From a virus (Duplodnaviria > Caudoviricetes), in the IMG/VR virus record IMGVR_UViG_3300012122_000001, positions 8,726-72,725 of that record: a stretch of 64,000 nt of DNA. One strand, 5' to 3'. The notes beneath the pieces are model-generated. The model did not search any database. It saw nothing but the letters and a program-made list of their open reading frames with translations, and was not told the DNA's origin. This document shows positions 3,667 to 46,747 of the stretch, one piece after another. Positions within the stretch are counted from its first letter, which is position 1. Each line of letters begins with the position of its first letter. The translations under genes were made by a program, and so were the position numbers.

Positions 3667-5208
3667 ATGAGCTCGACCGTCGAAGGGCTCGAGCGCGGAG
3701 TCATCGGCACGGACAAAACCATCCAGAGAATGCACCGTCTGGTCGCGCTGGGAAAGCTCGACCCGACGATCCAGAAGATCGCGACCTGGATCCGCCTGGG
3801 CGTGCCCAAGGACGTGCGCGCCTCGACGAAGCTCGCGGCCGACGCGATCTTCAACTGGGTTCAGAAGCACGGTCTCTTCCAGCGCGACCCGTTCCAGATC
3901 GAGAAGATCGAGCATCCTATCGAAGCGATGCGGCCGATCATCGAGGCGCGCAAGGCCGGGACGTACACCGGACCGGCGCTCTTCGTCGGCGACTGCGACA
4001 CGATGGCGGGCGTGTACACGGCGAGTTTGCTCGGCGTGCTCGGCTTCCAGTATTCCTTCGAAACCGCCAAGGTCGATCCGGATCGCCCCGACGAGTTCTC
4101 TCACGTCTGGGTCTCCGCGCGGATCGGGAACGAGTGGTACCCGCTCGACCCGTCGACGCGCGGGGCATATCCCGGCTGGCGTCCTCCGGTCAAGCCGGAG
4201 CAGTTCAAACGCTGGCCGGAGGGACCGATCGAAGACGTCGTGAAAGGGTCCGACATGAGCGCATTCAACAGCGGCATGGGGGATAACGGAGAAGACGAAG
4301 GCGGCGACGAGCCCGTCATCGAGAACAACGATTCCCCCCTCACCGGAGTCGACGCCGAGTACGCCCAGGACTACATCGGATACGGGATCCCCAGGGACTT
4401 CGGCAGCGGCCCAGGCGTGATCCCGCCCGGCAACTTCGAGAGCCTCCAGCTCCTTCCGCCGCACGACACGCAGATCCCGGCGGCCGACCTGGAGCGGGAC
4501 ATGCATCTGCTCAAGGCGGCGCCGCGCCTGGACCCGTCCGAACGGATCCAGAGCCTCGCCGGTCAGCCGAACGACCACGGCAACCCCTACTATCGCGGGG
4601 GTGGTCGCCAGCCCTACATCAAGGTCGAGCGCAAGATGTACCCGCCCGGCTCGCGCTGGAACGAGCCGTACGGCAAGGACACCATCCGCTACCAGAAAAC
4701 CGACAAGTACATTTCCGTCAAGAGTCCCGAAACACCCGAAAGACGAGTGGAGGTCAAGATGGACCAGCCGATGCTGATCCGCAGGAGAAACGTCATGACG
4801 CCCCCTCAGCGGATCCCGTTCGGCGCAATGGACGGCATGGGCGACATCGATCCCAATACCGGGATCATGACCTTCGGCTCGACGCCCGCGCCCACGGCGA
4901 CGCAGACGGCAGCGGCGACCGCCGGAACGTCCGTCTGGGATTCGATCCTGGGCGCATTCTCGTCCGTCGCGAAGGCCGCCGGAACGATCGTTCCGTCGGT
5001 GCTCCAGTCGAAGACCGCGCAGGCCGTCGCGAGCGCGACGAACCGTCTCGCGGGCTCGAACGTGCTGACGGCCGGGCAGCTCACCAACCCGACGCCCTGG
5101 TACAAGAACCCCGTCACGATCGGCCTGGGGCTCGCCACGCTCGGCGGCCTGGGCTACGTCGTCATCAAGATGCGCCCCGGCATGGGCGGCCGGAGGCGTC
5201 GCCGGTAG
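3667..5208 (+). CDS. transglutaminase-like (papain-fold Cys-His-Asp) enzyme with C-terminal membrane anchor; candidate maturation protease
   Basis: GDCD, SHVW and PLDPS triad motifs; C-terminal hydrophobic helix IGLGLATLGGLGYVVI plus RRRRR tail. Confidence 0.8.
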   Translation: MSSTVEGLERGVIGTDKTIQRMHRLVALGKLDPTIQKIATWIRLGVPKDVRASTKLAADAIFNWVQKHGLFQRDPFQIEKIEHPIEAMRPIIEARKAGTYTGPALFVGDCDTMAGVYTASLLGVLGFQYSFETAKVDPDRPDEFSHVWVSARIGNEWYPLDPSTRGAYPGWRPPVKPEQFKRWPEGPIEDVVKGSDMSAFNSGMGDNGEDEGGDEPVIENNDSPLTGVDAEYAQDYIGYGIPRDFGSGPGVIPPGNFESLQLLPPHDTQIPAADLERDMHLLKAAPRLDPSERIQSLAGQPNDHGNPYYRGGGRQPYIKVERKMYPPGSRWNEPYGKDTIRYQKTDKYISVKSPETPERRVEVKMDQPMLIRRRNVMTPPQRIPFGAMDGMGDIDPNTGIMTFGSTPAPTATQTAAATAGTSVWDSILGAFSSVAKAAGTIVPSVLQSKTAQAVASATNRLAGSNVLTAGQLTNPTPWYKNPVTIGLGLATLGGLGYVVIKMRPGMGGRRRRR

Positions 5209-5213
5209 GTTCG

Positions 5214-5495
5214 ATGCGCTACATCCGCTACGTCAAGAGACCCGGCATCGGAGATTCCGTCACCGACGGACTCACGACCGGCTTCACCGCTTCGGTCGCC
5301 GAGGCCCTGGAGCCGAAGATCCGGACCATCCTGAAGGAGGACATCCTTCCCATGGTGATGGTGGGTCTCGTCGCGGGCGCCGTAGCGGCGTCGGTCATCG
5401 GATCCTGGTTCGCTTCGCGCCCCTCGCGGTCCGGAGTCCGGTCGAACCCGGTCTCCAGGATCCACATCCCTCTGCGTCGCCGGAGGACCGCATGA
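5214..5495 (+). CDS. small membrane protein
   Basis: One hydrophobic helix, N-terminal GIGD motif, basic C-terminus with RSNP. Confidence 0.75.
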   Translation: MRYIRYVKRPGIGDSVTDGLTTGFTASVAEALEPKIRTILKEDILPMVMVGLVAGAVAASVIGSWFASRPSRSGVRSNPVSRIHIPLRRRRTA

Positions 5496-8400
5496 GCTAC
5501 CAGGATCTCAAGTCCAGGATGGTCGCGCACCTCAAGAAGTGGGCGCGTGGAATGGTTGATTCCGGCGAGGGCATGAACTTCAGCATCGAGTCGGCGATTT
5601 ACTGGTTCGCGAACGACTACCACAACGGCGGCGGAAGCGAGCTCTACCAGATCCTCTCGACCTCGAAATTTCGTCCCGGTCCGTCTCATCGGTCGGTCGA
5701 CGATGAAGGCGACGAGATCGACAAAATGATGTACGAGGAGCTGGAGCGGTACTTCATCCCAAAAGGAAGAGCGAGGAACAACGGTCACACGGGCGTTCGA
5801 AAGAACCCTCCGTCCTTCATCCTGATCGACAAAGAGACCGGACTCGTCGTGTACACGAAGCGGGCGACCGGCGTCGGCAGCGCAGCGATCTCGGCTTGCG
5901 TGAAGCGTGGTCACGAGCTCGCGGACCAGCACAACCGCGTCTACACCGTCTTCCTGGACATCCGCGGCCTCTCTCGTGGCATGAAGGTCCATGTCCCGGC
6001 GATCTATGCGCTCGGGATCACCGAAGAGATCCATCCGGGCGGTCAGTCCGTCCGTCCGAATTCTCGCGGCGCCGTACGGAAGAACATCTTCACCTTCAAC
6101 AATCCGAAGCTGAAGTTCAGCGATCTCTCGGTCGGCGAGACGTTCGTGTTCGCCTCCCAGGACGATCCCAAGTTCCTGACCAGCGGAATGGCGCGCGGTC
6201 CGTGGATCAAGCGCAGCGCCAGGACGTACGAACACGTCGACGACGTCGGCAAGCAGATCTCGGAGCGGAGGTACGGCGGCGGCCATATCGCCGTCGGAAG
6301 CGCCTCCGTCGGAGTGAAGCGCATGAGCCTCGGACGGGAACTGCCGAAGCTCTGCCCTCACTGCGACGCCTCGTATATCGGCACGCCCCAGATGCACAAG
6401 TTCGAGTGCGCTCCCCAGGGCGGAGCGAACCTGTACCAGGAGAACCCGCGCCGCAGATCCGCTCGTCGGAACCCCACGATGGGATCCTACGAGGTCTTCG
6501 TCGGGAACATCGGGCAGGTCTACGACGGGAACGATCGGGCGAAGGCGCAGCACTCCTTCGACTACTACGTCGCCATGTCGAAGCGTACCAGCGGTCGCGC
6601 GAGCGGCGAGGATGTCGCCCTCCTCTGTGAAGGCGAACTCAGCCAGGAGTACATCGGAAGCAAGGGACGCGAGCGCGGAGATCATCGGCGCGGCGTCCGC
6701 CGGAACATCTTCACCTTCAACAATCCTCCGTCCGGCCCGGCAGATCCGGCCGCGGCGCGCGAGCTCGAGGTCTACATCGAGAACGACGCCGACCTCTACC
6801 GGCAGCAGTTCGTCCCGATCGTGAAGAATCTGATGCTGAAGCGCCGGAAGGGCGTCTACAACCGCGAGCTGGCGGTCAAGCTCTTCATGTACCTGATGGA
6901 CGCGGGCGCGAAGAAGTACGTCGCCGAGTACGTCCGCTCGTCGTCGCCCGGCGCGCCGATGCCGAAGATCGACGGCACCTTCAACAAGAACACGCGCCTG
7001 ATGGCCGCGCGGTCCTTCCTGGAGTCCTTCGAAGGCGAGGCGGAGCTCGGGAACTACGACCGGATGATCGGTCCGGTCTCGAACCCTCGGGGGGCAAACG
7101 TGCGGAAGAATATCTTCACCTTCAACAACCCGAAGCAGCGTCCTCTGAACGAGATGGAGAACGCTGCCAGTCTGGTCGGCCTGACCGTCACGACCTGGGC
7201 GCCGGGCGACGGCGTGACGCGCTACCGCTTCTTCAAGGCAGGCGGAAGTCGGTACGCCGACTATCACCAGGGCGGCGCTCTCTACACGGCGCTCGGCCGG
7301 AAGGAAGCGATCGCGTTCATCAAGTCGTACGGCGTCGGCCGTAGCCGGATGAATCCGCTGAACCAGAAAGAAATCGAGCAGATGCGCGATCGCGAGAGGT
7401 TCTACGTCGGTCGCTCTCAGAAGTACGGTTCCGAGGGGAAGGAAGCGGATGCCGCTCACTTCCGAGGCGCCGCGCAGGAGAGTCGGAACATTCGCGAGCG
7501 TCACCATGCCAAGGGCACGGATTGGTGGCCGAATCCCCCTGTCTGCTCGAACCCGCTCGTCCGCGGCGACAAGCTTCCTCACAACCTCCGGATGGAAGTG
7601 CGGAATCGGTTCATCTACCGCTGGACGTCCGACAACGATCGTCGCGCCGAAGTCTACGGCCTCTGCCCGCACTGCAAGACGCGGGGCGGGAAGCCCTCCG
7701 AGACCAACATCGCTTGCCGTCAGGTCCACCCGACGATCCCGCTTCAGACGGACGAGCAGTGGCTCAAGACGCACGCCTTCCACGTCACGAAGGCGGGTCG
7801 TCTCAGCGAGCGGCATAACCATGCGGAGCCGGGCTACATGGCCGACGACGAGACCAGGAAGAATCCGATGTCGCGCCGCGAAGCCGCAGGAGAGATCCGG
7901 GAGATCCGCGGCGCGAGAAGCAAGATGCGCTACTTCCATCGGCTCGGCCGTCCGGAAGCTGCCGAGTTCCAGGACGGATACGCTCACGGAGTCGCAGGAG
8001 CGGTTTACCGCCGCGGTCCGAAGTCCGCGCGTCGTGTCGTCGATCGCGCGGTCCGCTCGAATCCGCTCCTCCAGACCGTGATGCTGGCGAATCCTGGATC
8101 GGTGAAGACTTTCAGCGAGATGCAGGACGTGGGCAAGGCGAAGTACGTTGTGAACTATCACGACGGAGTGAAGGTGCATCGCGACGGTAGCCCGTTTTTC
8201 GACATCGCCATTTTCAGCAATCGGGCTAAGAAAGATCAGTTCGTCAGGAAGTTGGAGAGCCTTGGATTTACTCGGGGCGCCCTTCGGAACCCGCCGATCT
8301 CCACGCAGTGGGATCGGATGACGCGCCGCCAGCGCGAGGCGCTCCTGGAGATCGTCGGCTACGATCGTGACTTCTCCGGCGGCATGACGCTGTCCACCTG

Positions 8401-9133
8401 GGGCGCGCTCTCTCCCGCCGCGAAGCGGAAGCTCGAGGCTCAGTGGCTCGACACGACGTCAAGCGGCGGAACGACGCGCCGTCGGCGCCGCTCGCCGGTC
8501 GCGGTGAATCCGCTGACCAGGAAAGAAGCCGCGTCGACGGTCAGAAGCGCAAAGTTCGACCTTCGATACGGGTCGGCGTTCGCGCCCGGACACACGCGAT
8601 CCGGCTCGGCCGGTCGCGCGTTCGGGAAGGCAACGGTCGTTCGTGACTTCGGCCCCAGGTCAGCCGGTCGGGCCGCGAGCAAGATCATGAAGCGTTCCGT
8701 CGACCTGACGCACGCCGTTCGTACGAACCCCGGCATCAAGTACCCGAAACCCGGCACGAAGATGACCGTCGCCCAGGCGATGGACCTCGCGCGCCGGATC
8801 GGCAACAAGGATCTGATCAAGCAGTGCGAGGAAGCCGCGAAGCTCCAGAAGGTCGCGAACCGCGGCGCGAAGGTCGTCATCTGGAAGGAGCTGCCGATCG
8901 GCTCGCCGAACAAGATCGACATGGTGACGGCCTTCGCCCATTACGGCGACTCTCCGGAGACGATGTACCGGCCGCCGAAGGGCTCGAAGAAGGGCCCGCA
9001 TATGTACCGCCACAAATGGGGCGAGGGAACCGGCAAGAAGAAGTCCGTGCCGATCCTGGCGGCGCCCGGCGGCAAAGCACTCATCACGCTGATGGGCAGC
9101 GACCAGAAGACCGGCGATTGGATGAGAGGCTAG
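5492..9133 (+). CDS. 1213-aa mosaic (polyvalent-like) protein with 16 NP motifs
   Basis: ATGA-coupled to the previous gene; unrelated ~50-100-aa modules separated by basic linkers ending in NP; R(K/R)NIFTFNNP occurs three times. Confidence 0.85.
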   Translation: MSYQDLKSRMVAHLKKWARGMVDSGEGMNFSIESAIYWFANDYHNGGGSELYQILSTSKFRPGPSHRSVDDEGDEIDKMMYEELERYFIPKGRARNNGHTGVRKNPPSFILIDKETGLVVYTKRATGVGSAAISACVKRGHELADQHNRVYTVFLDIRGLSRGMKVHVPAIYALGITEEIHPGGQSVRPNSRGAVRKNIFTFNNPKLKFSDLSVGETFVFASQDDPKFLTSGMARGPWIKRSARTYEHVDDVGKQISERRYGGGHIAVGSASVGVKRMSLGRELPKLCPHCDASYIGTPQMHKFECAPQGGANLYQENPRRRSARRNPTMGSYEVFVGNIGQVYDGNDRAKAQHSFDYYVAMSKRTSGRASGEDVALLCEGELSQEYIGSKGRERGDHRRGVRRNIFTFNNPPSGPADPAAARELEVYIENDADLYRQQFVPIVKNLMLKRRKGVYNRELAVKLFMYLMDAGAKKYVAEYVRSSSPGAPMPKIDGTFNKNTRLMAARSFLESFEGEAELGNYDRMIGPVSNPRGANVRKNIFTFNNPKQRPLNEMENAASLVGLTVTTWAPGDGVTRYRFFKAGGSRYADYHQGGALYTALGRKEAIAFIKSYGVGRSRMNPLNQKEIEQMRDRERFYVGRSQKYGSEGKEADAAHFRGAAQESRNIRERHHAKGTDWWPNPPVCSNPLVRGDKLPHNLRMEVRNRFIYRWTSDNDRRAEVYGLCPHCKTRGGKPSETNIACRQVHPTIPLQTDEQWLKTHAFHVTKAGRLSERHNHAEPGYMADDETRKNPMSRREAAGEIREIRGARSKMRYFHRLGRPEAAEFQDGYAHGVAGAVYRRGPKSARRVVDRAVRSNPLLQTVMLANPGSVKTFSEMQDVGKAKYVVNYHDGVKVHRDGSPFFDIAIFSNRAKKDQFVRKLESLGFTRGALRNPPISTQWDRMTRRQREALLEIVGYDRDFSGGMTLSTWGALSPAAKRKLEAQWLDTTSSGGTTRRRRRSPVAVNPLTRKEAASTVRSAKFDLRYGSAFAPGHTRSGSAGRAFGKATVVRDFGPRSAGRAASKIMKRSVDLTHAVRTNPGIKYPKPGTKMTVAQAMDLARRIGNKDLIKQCEEAAKLQKVANRGAKVVIWKELPIGSPNKIDMVTAFAHYGDSPETMYRPPKGSKKGPHMYRHKWGEGTGKKKSVPILAAPGGKALITLMGSDQKTGDWMRG
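6077..7132 (+). repeat. three ~30-bp direct repeats encoding R(K/R)NIFTFNNP
   Basis: Near-identical copies of cggaagaacatcttcaccttcaacaatcc at ~6077, ~6698 and ~7103. Confidence 0.9.
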
Positions 9134-9143
9134 GAGAATTCAC

Positions 9144-10262
9144 ATGATCGGAGCACTTGTATTTGCGAACCCCGGACGGCCTGTAGCCGCTCGGAGGAGA
9201 CGTTCGCGTTCCCGTACCGCCCGCACGACGGGCAGGAGAGTCAAGATGGCACGCACCCGTTCGCGCCGTCGCACCGGGCGGCGCATCCGGCGGAATGCCA
9301 AGGGGCATTTCGTCACCCGGCGCCGGTCGACCCGGCGTCGGCGTCGGAATCCCAGCGGCTTCATCAAGGTCGGCCGCCGCTGGAAGAAGATCACGAAGTA
9401 CGCCCGTCGGCGCCGTCGGGGCAGCCGGAAGGGCCAGATCCGGGCCTTCAAGTTCCCGAAGCGGTATCGGCGGAGCCGCCGGGTTCGTCGGAACCCCGTG
9501 GTCGTCGCCAACCCGCGTCGGAGCCGTAGCCGTCGGGCGCGGCGCAACCCGTATCGGCGTCATCGCCGGTACGTCCGTCGGAATCCCAGCGTCGCGTATC
9601 GGCTGACGTCGGATCCGGTCGCGGCGATCAAGTCGGCGATCATGTCCGCGTTCTCGATGGACACCGTCGAGACGCTGTTCCACATGGGCCTGGGCTTCGG
9701 CTCGTCCATCGTGGTCAGCCGGACGCTGATCAAGCAGTGGCTGCCGGTCCTCGGCGAGACCGCTCTCGGCCGGGTCGGCGGCACGTTCGGGACCGGCGTG
9801 GTCCTGACGGCGCTGTCGAGCTTCCTCAAGAACTCGAGCCTCACGGCCCGGTTCCTGACCGGCTCGCTGTTCGCCACCTTCTGGCAGGGCCTGTCCGAAG
9901 TCGTGTCGGCCTACCAGCCTCAGCTCAAGGAGTTCATCCCGACGCTGTCGGGCGCTCCGGAGACCGAGGAGTTCCGTCGCGCGATCGAGCGGGAAGTTCT
10001 CCGCGAGCTCAAGGGCGGCGTGAACGAATACCTGCCCGCGGCGGGCGCCGAGGGGTACTCGACGTACCTCCGCCCGGCCGGGATCGAGTACCTCCGTCCC
10101 GCCGGGACGGAAGCGTACCTCACCGAAGTGGGCGCGGAGCGCGCCCAGGGAGGCATGGGCGCCTTCCTGACCGACCGCGAGGTCAGTCGCGTCGAAGCCC
10201 GGCCCAGCGGGGTCGGCGAGGACGAGTTCGGCAGGGGCGACACCCTGCCGGAGCGGTTCTAG
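9144..10262 (+). CDS. Arg-rich (protamine-like) core/membrane protein
   Basis: First ~150 aa very Arg-rich with 6 NP motifs (mostly RRNP), then hydrophobic helices, then (E/T/A)YLxxxG repeats; directly upstream of the capsid gene. Confidence 0.8.
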   Translation: MIGALVFANPGRPVAARRRRSRSRTARTTGRRVKMARTRSRRRTGRRIRRNAKGHFVTRRRSTRRRRRNPSGFIKVGRRWKKITKYARRRRRGSRKGQIRAFKFPKRYRRSRRVRRNPVVVANPRRSRSRRARRNPYRRHRRYVRRNPSVAYRLTSDPVAAIKSAIMSAFSMDTVETLFHMGLGFGSSIVVSRTLIKQWLPVLGETALGRVGGTFGTGVVLTALSSFLKNSSLTARFLTGSLFATFWQGLSEVVSAYQPQLKEFIPTLSGAPETEEFRRAIEREVLRELKGGVNEYLPAAGAEGYSTYLRPAGIEYLRPAGTEAYLTEVGAERAQGGMGAFLTDREVSRVEARPSGVGEDEFGRGDTLPERF

Positions 10263-18836: not shown

Positions 18837-20900
18837 ATGGGACTCTTCGCTGGTCCTGGTCCGATCCAGGTAAAGTCCTTCATAACCAATCCCCCGACCT
18901 ACGGTATCGCGCAGATCGGCGTTGCCAAAAACTTTGCCGGATTTATTGCCGTCAACAGTCACTCGAGCTACTTGGTCGATCCCGACAGTCAGGCAACCTA
19001 CGGGTTCGAGCCCATGACCACCGGCTCGATGGTCATCACGTTCTTCCGGATGTACGGGTCCGCGGGGCAGATCACGCTGACGTACTCGACGTCGCCCGGA
19101 CCCGCGACGCCTCTGGGCGCGAATCCGGGCGTCGACTATACCGCCGTCTCCGGAACGCTGGTCTGGACCGATGGGGACATCGCTCCGAAGACCGTATCGA
19201 TTCCCCTGCTTCCGACTGCCTACACCATCGGGTTCCCGAACAACTTCTTCTACTTCAACATCGACAGCGTCGTGGTCGCCGCTCCGAACCCGACCGTCTA
19301 CGTCTACATGGGCGGAAACGACTTCAACGGCGGGAATCTGGAACCGTTCCCGAGCGGACTCTACGCCACGAGTTACACGTTCCCGGCCCTCATCATCAAG
19401 CGGACGGTCGGGAGCGCCTACTTCGTTGGATCTCCGTATTCCGTCCAGCGTCCAGGCGGGACGACGACCGTGACGCTCCAGGTCGTTCGGGCCGACAACG
19501 CCGGAGGGTTCAAGGGGGCGGTTCAGGTCAGCTACCACACCACGGACGGGACCGCCATCGCCGGTGTCGCCTATACCACAAAGACAGGGACGATCTCCTG
19601 GGCCGACGGCGTCGGTGGCGCACAACCGATCACGATCACGATCCTGAACGGCGGAGCCGGAACGCAGAGCTTCACCGTCACGATCGACAACCCCACGAAC
19701 GGCCTCACGATCATCGTCACCCCGACGGCCACCGTGAACATCACGGCCGGTGCGCCTCCGGCGAACCCGACCTCGTCCGGAGCTATCCCCAATCAGGTGG
19801 TGGATCTCGAGACGTTTGCCGACCCAAATGGACACACGCAGACCGTCCCTAACCCAATCCTCGTCCAAGACTCCTTGAGCTACTACAACCGCAACTTCCT
19901 GATCAACTCCTACGCGACGACCGGGATCCGACCGGACCTCAACGCCGTCTTCTTCATCAGCACGACGGTCGGATGGTTCGTCGGGGATGGCGGCATGATC
20001 TTCAAGACCACCGATGCCGGTGTCACCTGGGTGCAGCAGACGAGCACGGTAGTCGTGGAGCTCGAGGACGTCTTCTTCGCCGATGCGAACAACGGATGGG
20101 CGGTCGGCGCCGACGGGACGATCCTCGTCACGACGAACGGCGGAACGGTCTGGACGGCTCAGACGAGCGGCGTCGCCACGAGGCTGAACGCCGTCGGCTT
20201 CATCAGCAGTACGAACGGCTGGGCCGTCGGGGACGGCGGCGTGATCCGCGTCACCACGAACGGCGGCGGAACGTGGTCCCTCCAGGCAAGCGGCGTCGTC
20301 ACGGACCTGAACGACGTCTACTTCGTGGATGGCACCCACGGCTGGGCCGTCGGGGACGGCGGCGTGATCCTCTTCTACAACGGCACGACCTGGGCGGCTC
20401 AGACGAGCGGAACGCTGGTCAACCTGAACGGCGTGACCTTTACGAGTGCGACCAGCGGATGGGCCGTCGGAGACGACGGGGTCATCCTCTTCTGGAACGG
20501 CACGATTTGGGCGGCCCAGGTGAGCGGAGTCTCGACACAGATCGATCTCCGTGAGGTCGATTTTGCCAGCGCGACCGTCGGATGGGCCGTTGGGACGAAC
20601 GGCACGATTCTCGCTACCACGAACGGCGGGTCCACCTGGACTCCGCAGACCAGCGGAACGACGAACGACCTCAACGGTCTCGCCGCGGCCAGCACCTCGA
20701 TCGCCTGGGCGGTCGGTGACAACGGCACCATCCTCACAACGGCGAATGGCGGGACGACCTGGACTCCACAGGCAGCGCCGCTCCCCATTGGATCGAGCGG
20801 CGGAAACGGTGGAAGCTTCGGCGGCGGCGACGACTTCGCCAACTACGACCAGGGATTCTCGCAGAGCGGATTCCTGAAGTTCCAGGGAGCTATTTACTAA
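18837..20900 (+). CDS. adhesin: two Calx-beta-like domains plus a 7-bladed YCF48/BNR-type beta-propeller
   Basis: DYTAVSGTLVWTDGD and AYTTKTGTISWADG Calx-beta patterns; seven L..V.F.....GWAVG..G.I....NGG.TW..Q repeats (~19935-20775). Confidence 0.8.
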   Translation: MGLFAGPGPIQVKSFITNPPTYGIAQIGVAKNFAGFIAVNSHSSYLVDPDSQATYGFEPMTTGSMVITFFRMYGSAGQITLTYSTSPGPATPLGANPGVDYTAVSGTLVWTDGDIAPKTVSIPLLPTAYTIGFPNNFFYFNIDSVVVAAPNPTVYVYMGGNDFNGGNLEPFPSGLYATSYTFPALIIKRTVGSAYFVGSPYSVQRPGGTTTVTLQVVRADNAGGFKGAVQVSYHTTDGTAIAGVAYTTKTGTISWADGVGGAQPITITILNGGAGTQSFTVTIDNPTNGLTIIVTPTATVNITAGAPPANPTSSGAIPNQVVDLETFADPNGHTQTVPNPILVQDSLSYYNRNFLINSYATTGIRPDLNAVFFISTTVGWFVGDGGMIFKTTDAGVTWVQQTSTVVVELEDVFFADANNGWAVGADGTILVTTNGGTVWTAQTSGVATRLNAVGFISSTNGWAVGDGGVIRVTTNGGGTWSLQASGVVTDLNDVYFVDGTHGWAVGDGGVILFYNGTTWAAQTSGTLVNLNGVTFTSATSGWAVGDDGVILFWNGTIWAAQVSGVSTQIDLREVDFASATVGWAVGTNGTILATTNGGSTWTPQTSGTTNDLNGLAAASTSIAWAVGDNGTILTTANGGTTWTPQAAPLPIGSSGGNGGSFGGGDDFANYDQGFSQSGFLKFQGAIY

Positions 20901-44108: not shown

Positions 44109-45929
44109 CTACACCCCCACCGAAAGAGCATCCAGGATCTCGTCGGACGGGCGCATCCGCTCCGTGTTCTTGCCGACCAGGACACCCGCGGTCCGGAGCG
44201 TCGAGAGGATGTTCCGGAAGCCGCCGGAGACTTCGTAGCCGGATGCCGTGGCGAGCTCGTTGATCGTCAGCCCGTTTCCGCCCGGCTTCTCGATCTCGAT
44301 CAGCGCCTTGAGGGTCCGCTGCTCGCCGGTCCCGAAGGACTTGTGGTTGAGCCAGTAGTCGACGAACTCCTGACCCGTGAGGCGCTCCGAGACCGGCGCG
44401 ACCGCGCGACCGGCGTCCGTCAGCTTCATGATCCCCGTGTTCAGCCCTTCCATGTATCCCGCCGTCCTGGCGGTCGCGAGCGTGTTCCGGAAGCCACCGG
44501 AGATCCGGTAGCCCGACAGCAGCGCCAGCTTGACGATGTCGCAGCCGTCCGGGTAGTCCACCAGGACCCCCAGGACCGCCTTGACCGGCTTGTCGATGAC
44601 CATGTCGCTCGAGGTCGGCGTGTTGAAGGCGAAAGCGTCCTTGTACTGAACCGGCTTCGTCACTGGAGCCTTCTTCTGAATCGGCGCCGGAGGCGGCGGC
44701 GCCTTCTGGGTCAGCTTCGACGTGTCGAGCTTCGCCGCCACGGCCTTGAGATCTCCGATCCATCGATCGACGTTGATCATCCCGGAGAACTTCGTGATCG
44801 CTTCGACGGCCGACAGAGCCTTCTCCGCGGCCTTCGCGATCGCGCGGGCCTGCCGCTTCCCGACCACCGGAACCTCGACGATCTTGTCGACCGAGACCGT
44901 CTTCATGTCCGTCACGACTACCTGCTTCGTCTTCTCCAGGGTGGAGATCTTCCTCTGGAGCTCCTGGATCTCCGCGCGGAGCTGCTTCTCGTTCTTCGCC
45001 CTGGTGTCGACCTCCTTTGGGAGGTCCGCGAGCTTCGGCAGCAGCGTCTTGATGACCTCCGGCACGGGCGGCGCCTTGGCGCTGTAGCCCTTCGACCCGG
45101 CCTCCTGGTGCTTGGTCGAGACCGCGTCGACCTTGAAGAGGGTCCGCTCGTTCGCGACGGCGCGGCCGAAGGCGATGAAGTCTCCGGGCTCGAGGTTCCG
45201 GAGCGTCTTCCGGAACTCCGGCTTGTCCTCGCGCGAGACCGACATGAGGTCGGTCGCGCGATCGACGTCGACGTCCTCGACCGTCATTCCGACGAGGCGG
45301 TTGAACAGCTCCGCAGAGGCGTCCTTGTCGAGCTTCGCGAGGCGCTGCGTGGCCCAGACGGCACAGAGACCGCGCTTCCGGCCGACGGTCGCCAGGGCGA
45401 TCATCGCTTCCTTGCAGCGGGAGATGATCTCGCGCTCGACCATGCTGGCGGCCTTCGGCGACTCCTGGGGGCAGAACTGGTGCGCCTCGTCGACGATGAC
45501 GATGCAGTCGTGCCAGAGGTGCTTCGGCGCGTCGATCAGGCCCTCCAGGAAGGCCGCGACCCAGGCCCGTCGCCCGGACGGATTCGTCCGGAACGCCTCG
45601 TAGAGATCGCAGATCGTCGACGTGCCGAGCTCCAGGAGCTTCTCGGCGAGCAGCCGGGCCGACCGGACGTCTGCTTGGATGTCGGCGCCCTGGTCGACCT
45701 GCCCGACGTGCAGGAACCCGTACTTCGGCCGGAGGCTGGCGAACTCGCCCTCGCGGTCGATGATGATGATCTGGACCTTCCCGAAGATCAGCTCCGCCAG
45801 CAACCTGATCAACCAGGACTTTCCGCCACCGGAGTTCGCCTGGATGAGCAGGCGCGTCCGGAGCAGCACCTCCAGGTGAAACTGGATTAGCTTGACACCG
45901 TGCCTTCCGATGACGATCCCTTTTGACAT
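44109..45929 (-). CDS. HerA/FtsK-family ATPase (DUF87-like) with coiled coil and C-terminal helical/wHTH-like domains
   Basis: Walker A QANSGGGKS, IIIIDREGEF, Walker B IVIVDEAHQF, GRKRG Arg-finger region, ATQR. Confidence 0.85.
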   Translation of the reverse strand: MSKGIVIGRHGVKLIQFHLEVLLRTRLLIQANSGGGKSWLIRLLAELIFGKVQIIIIDREGEFASLRPKYGFLHVGQVDQGADIQADVRSARLLAEKLLELGTSTICDLYEAFRTNPSGRRAWVAAFLEGLIDAPKHLWHDCIVIVDEAHQFCPQESPKAASMVEREIISRCKEAMIALATVGRKRGLCAVWATQRLAKLDKDASAELFNRLVGMTVEDVDVDRATDLMSVSREDKPEFRKTLRNLEPGDFIAFGRAVANERTLFKVDAVSTKHQEAGSKGYSAKAPPVPEVIKTLLPKLADLPKEVDTRAKNEKQLRAEIQELQRKISTLEKTKQVVVTDMKTVSVDKIVEVPVVGKRQARAIAKAAEKALSAVEAITKFSGMINVDRWIGDLKAVAAKLDTSKLTQKAPPPPAPIQKKAPVTKPVQYKDAFAFNTPTSSDMVIDKPVKAVLGVLVDYPDGCDIVKLALLSGYRISGGFRNTLATARTAGYMEGLNTGIMKLTDAGRAVAPVSERLTGQEFVDYWLNHKSFGTGEQRTLKALIEIEKPGGNGLTINELATASGYEVSGGFRNILSTLRTAGVLVGKNTERMRPSDEILDALSVGV

Positions 45930-45955
45930 CCCCGTCTCCTTCTTCTTCCTTCTTC

Positions 45956-46747
45956 CTACCGGATCTTTCCAAACGCCGCGGATACCTCGTCCTCCGTTGT
46001 GTGGCTGTACACCTTCAAGAGCTCGATCGACGCCCACCGCATCTCCTGGCGGATCGTGTTGGGGTCCAGGCCGGACCGAACGAGCCTACTCGCGCGGGTA
46101 TGCCTCAAGATGTGAACAAGGCTCGCCCGATCCGGTTTGATCTTGTCGAGGATCCGCTCGAACGTCCTCTGGAACGTCCTCTTCGCCATCGGGAAGAGGA
46201 GGTCGTCCGGCTTCATCTTCTTCGACCAGAGCTGGAGCTCGACGACGAACTTGCCTTTGTTGTCGAGGTGGACCGGCAGCAGAGGATGCCCGGCCTTCTT
46301 GAGCGTCGGGATCCGGACGATCGACAGCGGGCCGTCCTTGAACTCCAGGTGCCTCTTGCGGACCAGGAGCGTCTCCCCGCAGCGGCATCCGGTCTCGAGC
46401 GTGAAGCGCAGGCCGACTCCGAACGGCTTCTCGAGCTTGAAGGATGCGGCCAGGACTTTCGAGAACTCCGCGTCGTTCAGGAACTTCCTCGAGTCGAGCG
46501 AGGTCGACGTCGCGCTCGAAGCGGTCCCCTTGTAGTACTTCGACCGGCAGCAGCCCGCCACGCAAGTGATGATCTTGTCCTTCCGGCCGGAGACCTTCAG
46601 AGTCTTCTTCTCGCAGACGTGATCCTTGGCAGTGCAGGTCTTCGCGCGCCCCACCATGTTGAACCGGGCCATGAACTCCCGGTTGCAGACGTGGCAGACC
46701 GCGGGAACGTTGTACTCCTTGTCGACTTTGTCGATCTTCTTCTTCAC
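45956..46747 (-). CDS. tyrosine recombinase with Cys-rich N-terminus
   Basis: TGCR..E, TLK, HILRH, RW.SI and VYSH catalytic pattern; GTGA-coupled start. Confidence 0.9.
   Translation of the reverse strand: MKKKIDKVDKEYNVPAVCHVCNREFMARFNMVGRAKTCTAKDHVCEKKTLKVSGRKDKIITCVAGCCRSKYYKGTASSATSTSLDSRKFLNDAEFSKVLAASFKLEKPFGVGLRFTLETGCRCGETLLVRKRHLEFKDGPLSIVRIPTLKKAGHPLLPVHLDNKGKFVVELQLWSKKMKPDDLLFPMAKRTFQRTFERILDKIKPDRASLVHILRHTRASRLVRSGLDPNTIRQEMRWASIELLKVYSHTTEDEVSAAFGKIR

Follow-up and report, generated by a model that had tools for sequence, protein, structure and literature searches.

The closest described class to the system reported here is that of the polyvalent proteins found in phages and conjugative elements (Iyer, Burroughs, Anand, de Souza, Aravind 2017; PMC5512222), for which delivery together with the genome has been predicted and release of the domains by peptidases has been proposed. 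In T4, phiKZ and SPN3US, internal and ejection proteins form a basic capsid cargo, trimmed at a short motif (S77 protease, x-x-E) and ejected with the DNA, and a Glu-type motif is the site cut by the prohead proteases of the T4 family (PMC5694885). In the adenovirus core precursors (pVII, pX/mu) with adenain, and in pp220, pp62 and pS273R of African swine fever virus (ASFV), a cysteine protease stands beside Arg-rich, DNA-condensing precursors, and short recurring motifs are the places where a polyprotein is cut in the particle. Finally, self-cleavage between Asn and Pro has been described for aquareovirus VP5, orthoreovirus mu1, the NPTH sequence of FlhB/SpaS and RsgI (PMC9148132, PMC4620466, PMC10328401). 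Here we describe a gene at positions 5492-9133, on the plus strand, of a 64,000-nucleotide stretch of viral DNA (the window, positions 8,726 to 72,725 of record IMGVR_UViG_3300012122_000001, an IMG/VR virus record of 72,725 bp that carries direct terminal repeats). Its product, of 1213 aa, is a string of small modules and short spacers joined at Asn-Pro dipeptides (NP), which we call seams (N|P), and literature searches for Asn-Pro polyproteins in phages returned no precedent and no published description. The same seams punctuate the Arg-rich protein encoded by the next gene, and the modules are shuffled among the relatives of the polyprotein. We propose, with about an even chance of being right, that this is a cargo polyprotein of the virion interior, processed at N|P by a viral enzyme.

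The reading frame is uninterrupted, its product has a net charge of +78, and its ATG overlaps the stop of the gene upstream and is preceded by GGAGG 8 nt 5′ of it. The initial annotation of this DNA had counted 16 NP, in listed contexts, against roughly 3 expected, and had placed a basic linker ahead of them. Both observations were reproduced: the 16 dipeptides, at residues 105, 204, 318, 327, 411, 531, 546, 621, 681, 687, 791, 857, 867, 933, 1006 and 1079, compare with 2.84 expected from the composition, and 10,000 shuffles of the protein gave a mean of 2.85 and a maximum of 11, none of them reaching 16, while the 12 aa preceding a seam carry a charge of +1.6 compared to a background of +0.9 (p = 7e-20). 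NP is the most enriched dipeptide of the polyprotein (5.6-fold), and 30% of the Asn residues are followed by Pro. The seam codons are a synonymous mix (AAC 8 and AAT 8 for Asn; CCG 9, CCT 4 and CCC 3 for Pro), indicating that selection acts on the protein and not on a DNA word, and ruling out a DNA-level motif as the source of the excess. The window has a high GC content and contains many spurious overlapping open reading frames (ORFs), from which a compositional or DNA-level artefact, such as a recombination hexamer or a wrong frame, might be suspected; however, the shuffles control for composition, the codons vary, the enrichment persists in a distant AT-rich lineage, and the frame is backed by 55 family members, thousands of weaker matches and synteny. 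We therefore reject this explanation as having practically no probability. As a separate observation, the gene-wide AAC:AAT ratio is 40:13, and 8 of the 13 AAT codons encode a seam Asn. Ribosomal skipping of the 2A/StopGo type, which relies on D(V/I)ExNPGP in eukaryotic translation, was also discarded, since no NPGP is present, NPG occurs at only 2 of the 16 seams, and the translation signals are prokaryotic, with Shine-Dalgarno motifs ahead of 11 of 24 genes and start/stop overlaps.

The seams are the borders of folded domains. An AlphaFold (AF2) model of residues 14-1213, built on a 93-sequence alignment, had a mean predicted local distance difference test (pLDDT) score of 67; modules H, E, C, Q, G, D, the second copy of A (A2) and B were confident, and no seam was found in the interior of a confident domain. 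In the same model, 13 of the 16 seam Asn are located inside segments with pLDDT <50, and the other three within 1-3 residues of them (binomial 1.7e-4). Four of the low-confidence segments stop exactly at the seam Asn, so that the fold starts at the Pro. The same picture emerged from the homologous sequences: in 408 clustered modules 37 interior NP were expected, and at most 8 modules were possibly split (Poisson 1e-8), while NP-poor homologues from outside the family align almost always within one seam-to-seam interval. Module G is matched end to end by proteins of 103-107 aa that stand alone, one of them in an array of small phage-like genes, and uncharacterised viral proteins of ~100 aa in BFVD, one from a giant virus, match one module at a template modelling (TM) score of 0.77-0.86. 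Module G of the window (7553-7864) also contains an inserted Cys-rich CPHC...C stretch, missing in several homologues, which may be an inserted zinc ribbon.

The position of the seams bears on the possibility that they are cut with no protease, by cyclisation of the Asn through asparagine peptide lyase chemistry. In favour of it, the scissile pair would be identical to that of VP5/mu1, FlhB/SpaS and RsgI, and only N and P are invariant at the seams. The established cases, however, need a folded context at the Asn, and asparagine peptide lyases hold the scissile residue in a folded turn of a conserved domain, whereas here the seams are in or near segments with pLDDT <50 and, in the neighbouring protein, in a disordered Arg-rich region. 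The location of the seams in linkers beside many unrelated folds thus disfavours self-cleavage; moreover, free peptides break only very slowly at Asn-Pro of their own accord. We consider this explanation decidedly improbable.

Homologues were retrieved by word-index searches, which gave 47 proteins of 699-2060 aa, mostly on contigs of ~70 kb, plus 9 shorter ones; the family set used for the statistics consisted of 55 members from these searches, every one of which shows the NP excess. The 47 long homologues are all NP-rich (9-31 NP each versus about 2 expected), as are the shorter forms with one exception, and at E<=1e-3 an exhaustive profile search matched 4087 proteins, of which 825 were left at E<=1e-10; the matches include many further NP-rich multi-module proteins. 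Across the family the lengths between consecutive NP are bimodal, with spacers of 3-17 aa, modules of ~50-135 aa and almost nothing between. When the 47 proteins were cut at NP and the pieces clustered, 75 module clusters were obtained, among which the central module C and the C-terminal block D-A-B were near-universal; by contrast, the N-terminal half varied in the choice and order of its modules (H, E/F, J, K, L, N, O, P, I and others). Many seams are paired around conserved spacers of 4-15 aa, including PLLQTV[MFL][LA]AN, [GR]xVR[KR]NIF[TA]FNN and short ones containing Cys or His, an arrangement resembling the spacer peptides of processed polyproteins. In addition, 27 of the 55 members open with M-x(0-4)-[RK]-N-P, a mini-leader that would be most sensible if removed. 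Close relatives of the C-terminal B domain are few, only about 8 in IMG/VR and one, on a contig of a metagenome-assembled genome, in 185,579 species genomes; a B domain that seemed to stand alone (P0094) was an artefact, its frame continuing upstream without a stop as far as the contig end and containing an NP there.

Several proposals of the initial annotation can be judged on these data. It had seen compact modules delimited by NP, some of them resembling stand-alone proteins, and the model indeed places the seams between folded domains and none inside, while modules were found as free-standing genes and in other architectures. The check it suggested on module order in relatives came out with an order that differs between homologues in the N-terminal part, with C and D-A-B fixed. 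Neither seams inside predicted folds nor a fixed order lacking free-standing homologues, two outcomes that it had named as refuting, was observed. Its description of the modules as mutually unrelated is partly wrong, since the helical module A is present twice in the polyprotein (aa 792-857 and 1007-1079). Its overall reading, a packaged cargo polyprotein that would release host-takeover or anti-defence effectors, is partly supported, on the side of the modular anatomy.

A chain of this kind could also go into the particle, or work in the cell, uncut, the NP with its basic or hydrophobic flank being a docking or packaging tag, or a stiff insulator between domains, in a single beads-on-a-string molecule similar to the many polyvalent proteins that stay whole. 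Among the latter, N4 vRNAP, ArdC and TraC1 are examples of unprocessed delivery (PMC5512222), the basic tails ahead of the seams could bind DNA with no cleavage, the sequence conservation of the spacers PLLQTVMLAN and NIFTFN fits a binding element, and the NPL[TS]xxE found at part of the seams suits helix N-capping. Nevertheless, a pure linker leaves unexplained why N and P are invariant amid variable flanks, and the depletion of NP inside the modules and the M-x-x-K-N-P mini-leaders find no explanation either; moreover, the same dipeptide punctuates the disordered Arg-rich protein, in which there are no domains to insulate. On balance we hold uncut seams to be unlikely, although far from negligible.

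The NP code is common to the polyprotein and to this neighbouring gene (9144-10262). The first ~150 aa of its product are protamine-like Arg runs split by RRRN|P, after a start reading MIGALVFAN|P, and are followed by a C-terminal hydrophobic bundle and then by an acidic tail in which Y-L-x-P-A-G units recur. Seven related loci encode orthologues of this protein, with 6-8 NP each. The protein looks like the precursor of a DNA-condensing core protein.

On the other side of the polyprotein gene, and two genes upstream in the window, is the gene of a transglutaminase-fold enzyme (3667-5208). The first 195 residues were modelled with pLDDT above 90, and the predicted structure shows a Cys-His-Asp triad on a transglutaminase core fold, with Cys110, His146 and Asp161 invariant in 50 sequences; the match to PF01841 (E = 0.004) is under the family cut-off. 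The enzyme has 115 homologues, its conservation is far above that of the polyprotein, and its gene is 5′ of the polyprotein gene in nine of nine related loci. The location of the polyprotein between protease and core genes, as first annotated, fits with this candidate cysteine protease upstream and the basic core-like protein downstream. A distant AT-rich lineage (L007) has the same gene order. Its transglutaminase-like gene (PF04473, E = 2.6e-6; E = 5e-8 in a pairwise comparison with the window enzyme) is followed by a small gene, then by the gene of a 1072-aa protein containing 16 NP and by that of a basic protein containing 5. The 1072-aa polyprotein (L007:4379-7597) ends in ...GIEN, so that its last residue is Asn, and its C-terminal domain is only faintly like module B.

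The step from this enzyme to the NP seams is the weakest of the proposed scheme, and several points weigh against the scheme as a whole. To our knowledge, no protease has a preference for Asn at P1 and Pro at P1′. Cleavage and the location in the virion, together with the identity of the cutter and the functions of the modules, are steps that we infer from the patterns described above. Modules K, P, O and I were poorly modelled, leaving the adjoining seams weakly tested. The neighbours of the enzyme fold include cross-linking transglutaminases, PNGase-type amidases and the wall isopeptidases PeiW/PeiP, and a fold covering cross-linkers, amidases and isopeptidases means that the enzyme may do something else. 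A further short motif, G-[LMIV]-G-[DE], is present in 10 copies versus 1.46 expected (7-fold) in 26 operon proteins (window 874-28541, plus strand), two of the copies being in the enzyme itself and none in the polyprotein; such a motif, enriched and yet absent from the polyprotein, could be the real target of the enzyme and may represent a second processing code. These data would fit a situation in which the seams are cut by another viral or host enzyme, and the transglutaminase-fold protein acts on the G-x-G-D/E sites, in cross-linking or in wall lysis at entry. Against this, no further protease-like gene was recognised near the polyprotein, and NP proteins accompany the enzyme in two distant lineages, in one of which, L007, G-[LMIV]-G-[DE] showed no enrichment in the 8 kb sampled, a result slightly in favour of NP being the target kept together with the enzyme. 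We regard a different cutter as improbable.

The modules are small, independently folding and swappable units, each with Pro at its start and with a mostly basic tail ending in Asn. If the seams are indeed processing sites, used in both the polyprotein and the adjacent Arg-rich protein, cutting inside the particle, or on entry, would yield free modules and short Arg-rich peptides; the basic tails might tie the pieces to the packaged DNA, and the invariant D-A-B block at the C-terminus could serve for incorporation. The transglutaminase-fold Cys-His-Asp enzyme would be the most likely cutter. Pro at P1′ would shield the seams from ordinary proteases, and every released module would receive an N-terminal Pro. 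More broadly, and with a confidence somewhat short of even, we suggest that in a widespread, so far undescribed lineage of prokaryotic viruses the inside of the particle is matured by a new proteolytic code, Asn|Pro. A membrane-anchored cysteine protease of transglutaminase fold would chop a protamine-like core into Arg-rich peptides and free a swappable set of small effector modules, tethered to DNA and reaching the host together with the genome, thus combining a core maturation like that of adenovirus and ASFV with a polyvalent cargo.

The coordinates of the polyprotein, of its modules and spacers and of the adjacent genes are reported in Table 1.

Table 1. Features of the NP-seamed locus in the window.
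Feature	Position	Strand	Remarks
Transglutaminase-fold Cys-His-Asp enzyme, 513 aa	3667..5208	+	Disordered middle, C-terminal transmembrane helix, poly-Arg tail; candidate seam protease
Small transmembrane protein, 93 aa	5214..5495	+	Basic tail with one VRSN|P seam; gene of 77-83 aa in the same place in relatives
NP-seamed polyprotein, 1213 aa	5492..9133	+	
Module K, aa 1-105	5492..5806	+	Low model confidence
Module H, aa 106-204	5807..6103	+	Alpha/beta fold, pLDDT 80-96; tail ends VRKNIFTFNN|P
Module P, aa 205-318	6104..6445	+	Contains Cys; poor model
Arg-rich spacer, 9 aa, seam on each side	6446..6472	+	
Module O, aa 328-411	6473..6724	+	Matches C-terminal part of hypothetical BcepSauron_064 (46% identity, E=3e-7)
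Module E, aa 412-531	6725..7084	+	Helical, pLDDT 93-97; most widespread module; also free-standing and in T4-like head-cluster proteins
Spacer ...VRKNIFTFNN, 15 aa, between two seams	7085..7129	+	Conserved spacer class
Module C, aa 547-621	7130..7354	+	Kept in nearly all homologues
Module Q, aa 622-681	7355..7534	+	Helical hairpin
Cys spacer PPVCSN, 6 aa	7535..7552	+	Conserved spacer class
Module G, aa 688-791	7553..7864	+	Free-standing 103-107-aa proteins align seam to seam
Module A copy 1, aa 792-857	7865..8062	+	
Hydrophobic spacer PLLQTVMLAN, 10 aa, between two seams	8063..8092	+	Conserved; resembles N-terminus of the next gene product, MIGALVFAN|P
Module I, aa 868-933	8093..8290	+	
Module D, aa 934-1006	8291..8509	+	Belongs to conserved C-terminal block
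Module A copy 2, aa 1007-1079	8510..8728	+	Three-helix bundle, edges exactly at seams
Module B, aa 1080-1213	8729..9133	+	Invariant C-terminal domain of the family; possible anchor
Arg-rich core-like protein, 372 aa	9144..10262	+	6 NP vs 0.44 expected; same seam code

Searches of Pfam, PHROG and PDB sequences, with the whole protein and with single modules, matched no family, and an ESM Atlas feature search with modules E and B returned only unnamed viral clusters or nothing. Neither Foldseek against the PDB nor an Atlas shape search gave a meaningful match with the 1200-residue model, as is usual when a model comprises several domains, and the only hits of a VIA wide search were generic three-helix bundles resembling A2, at a level too low to be meaningful for helical folds.

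Module E could be followed outside the family, to proteins of 530-565 aa that lack NP and have the module at their C-terminus. The one of 530 aa is encoded on a T4-like phage contig (L018:8001-9593) near Peptidase_S77, Gp23 and gp13 genes. Immediately before the module stands LTE|A in this protein and VNE|A in a 565-aa relative (P0116). On the basis of this prohead-type motif and of the head gene cluster, and by analogy with the T4 family, module E appears to be loaded in tailed phages as a capsid cargo released by a protease, with a different site code. With the NP code in the next gene and the upstream enzyme with its triad, the occurrence of module E in T4-like phages is what the present analysis adds to the initial annotation.

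Concerning the other genes of the window, a 642-aa HerA/FtsK-type ATPase (44109-46037, minus strand; PF01935, E = 3e-10) matches phrog_2666, a family with the label terminase large subunit; no other packaging-like gene was recognised, and this one is far from the virion operon. A 687-aa product (18837-20900, plus strand) with Calx-beta and BNR/YCF48-like beta-propeller repeats is likely a surface or adhesion protein, and contains 6 NP versus 2.25 expected.

Most proteases cannot cleave an Asn-Pro-type bond, and seams that are cut would imply a new viral protease specificity, for Asn at P1 and Pro at P1′. They would also provide a sequence rule for finding virion cargo in metagenomes, given the 4087 related proteins of the profile search, and their seam-to-seam parsing would lead to a catalogue of hundreds of small exchanged domains, which would be prime candidates to examine for host-takeover or anti-defence effects; a core maturation similar to that of adenovirus would then exist in a prokaryotic virus. 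If the seams are instead uncut, a strict dipeptide at domain borders still needs explaining.

The comparison with the known systems can now be made point by point. The N42|P43 site of VP5/mu1, the NPTH of FlhB/SpaS and RsgI have the same dipeptide as the scissile bond proposed here; however, these self-cleavers have a single site in a folded domain, whereas the polyprotein has 16 sites in linkers, and no relation in sequence or fold was found. With respect to T4, phiKZ and SPN3US, the N|P site does not follow a Glu and is present many times per chain, and neither an S77 protease nor HK97-type head genes were recognised. Polyvalent proteins are encoded in a capsid-packaging (portal/terminase) or conjugation setting; the polyprotein gene is in a same-strand operon, between the membrane-anchored enzyme and the Arg-rich protein, and tailed-phage hallmarks, including the portal, terminase and major capsid protein families, were not detected in the neighbouring genes by Pfam and PHROGs. 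Adenovirus and ASFV differ in being eukaryotic viruses with Gly-based sites and a protease of the clan CE fold, whereas here prokaryotic Shine-Dalgarno motifs, a transglutaminase-like fold and Asn-Pro are found; the resemblance is one of analogy only. The hub and LPD domains of the polyvalent proteins (MPTase, ArdC-N, SNF2, methylases, LPDs) were absent from the window polyprotein in a Pfam search at E<=1, made with sequence profiles only; a Pfam scan of seven homologues gave none in six of them and DUF2958 in P0045, and none was found in 17 further module-sharing proteins. Unlike polyvalent proteins, the chain contains no embedded peptidase, the candidate protease being the separate transglutaminase-fold gene, and it has a stereotyped dipeptide seam, also used in the neighbouring Arg-rich protein, of a kind that PMC5512222, in which the word 'linker' is absent, does not describe. 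On the other hand, the ~13 modules of the window polyprotein are within the 2-15 distinct, recombined domains by which polyvalent proteins are recognised, and the two classes have in common many small unrelated domains per chain, which are shuffled and also occur as free-standing genes.

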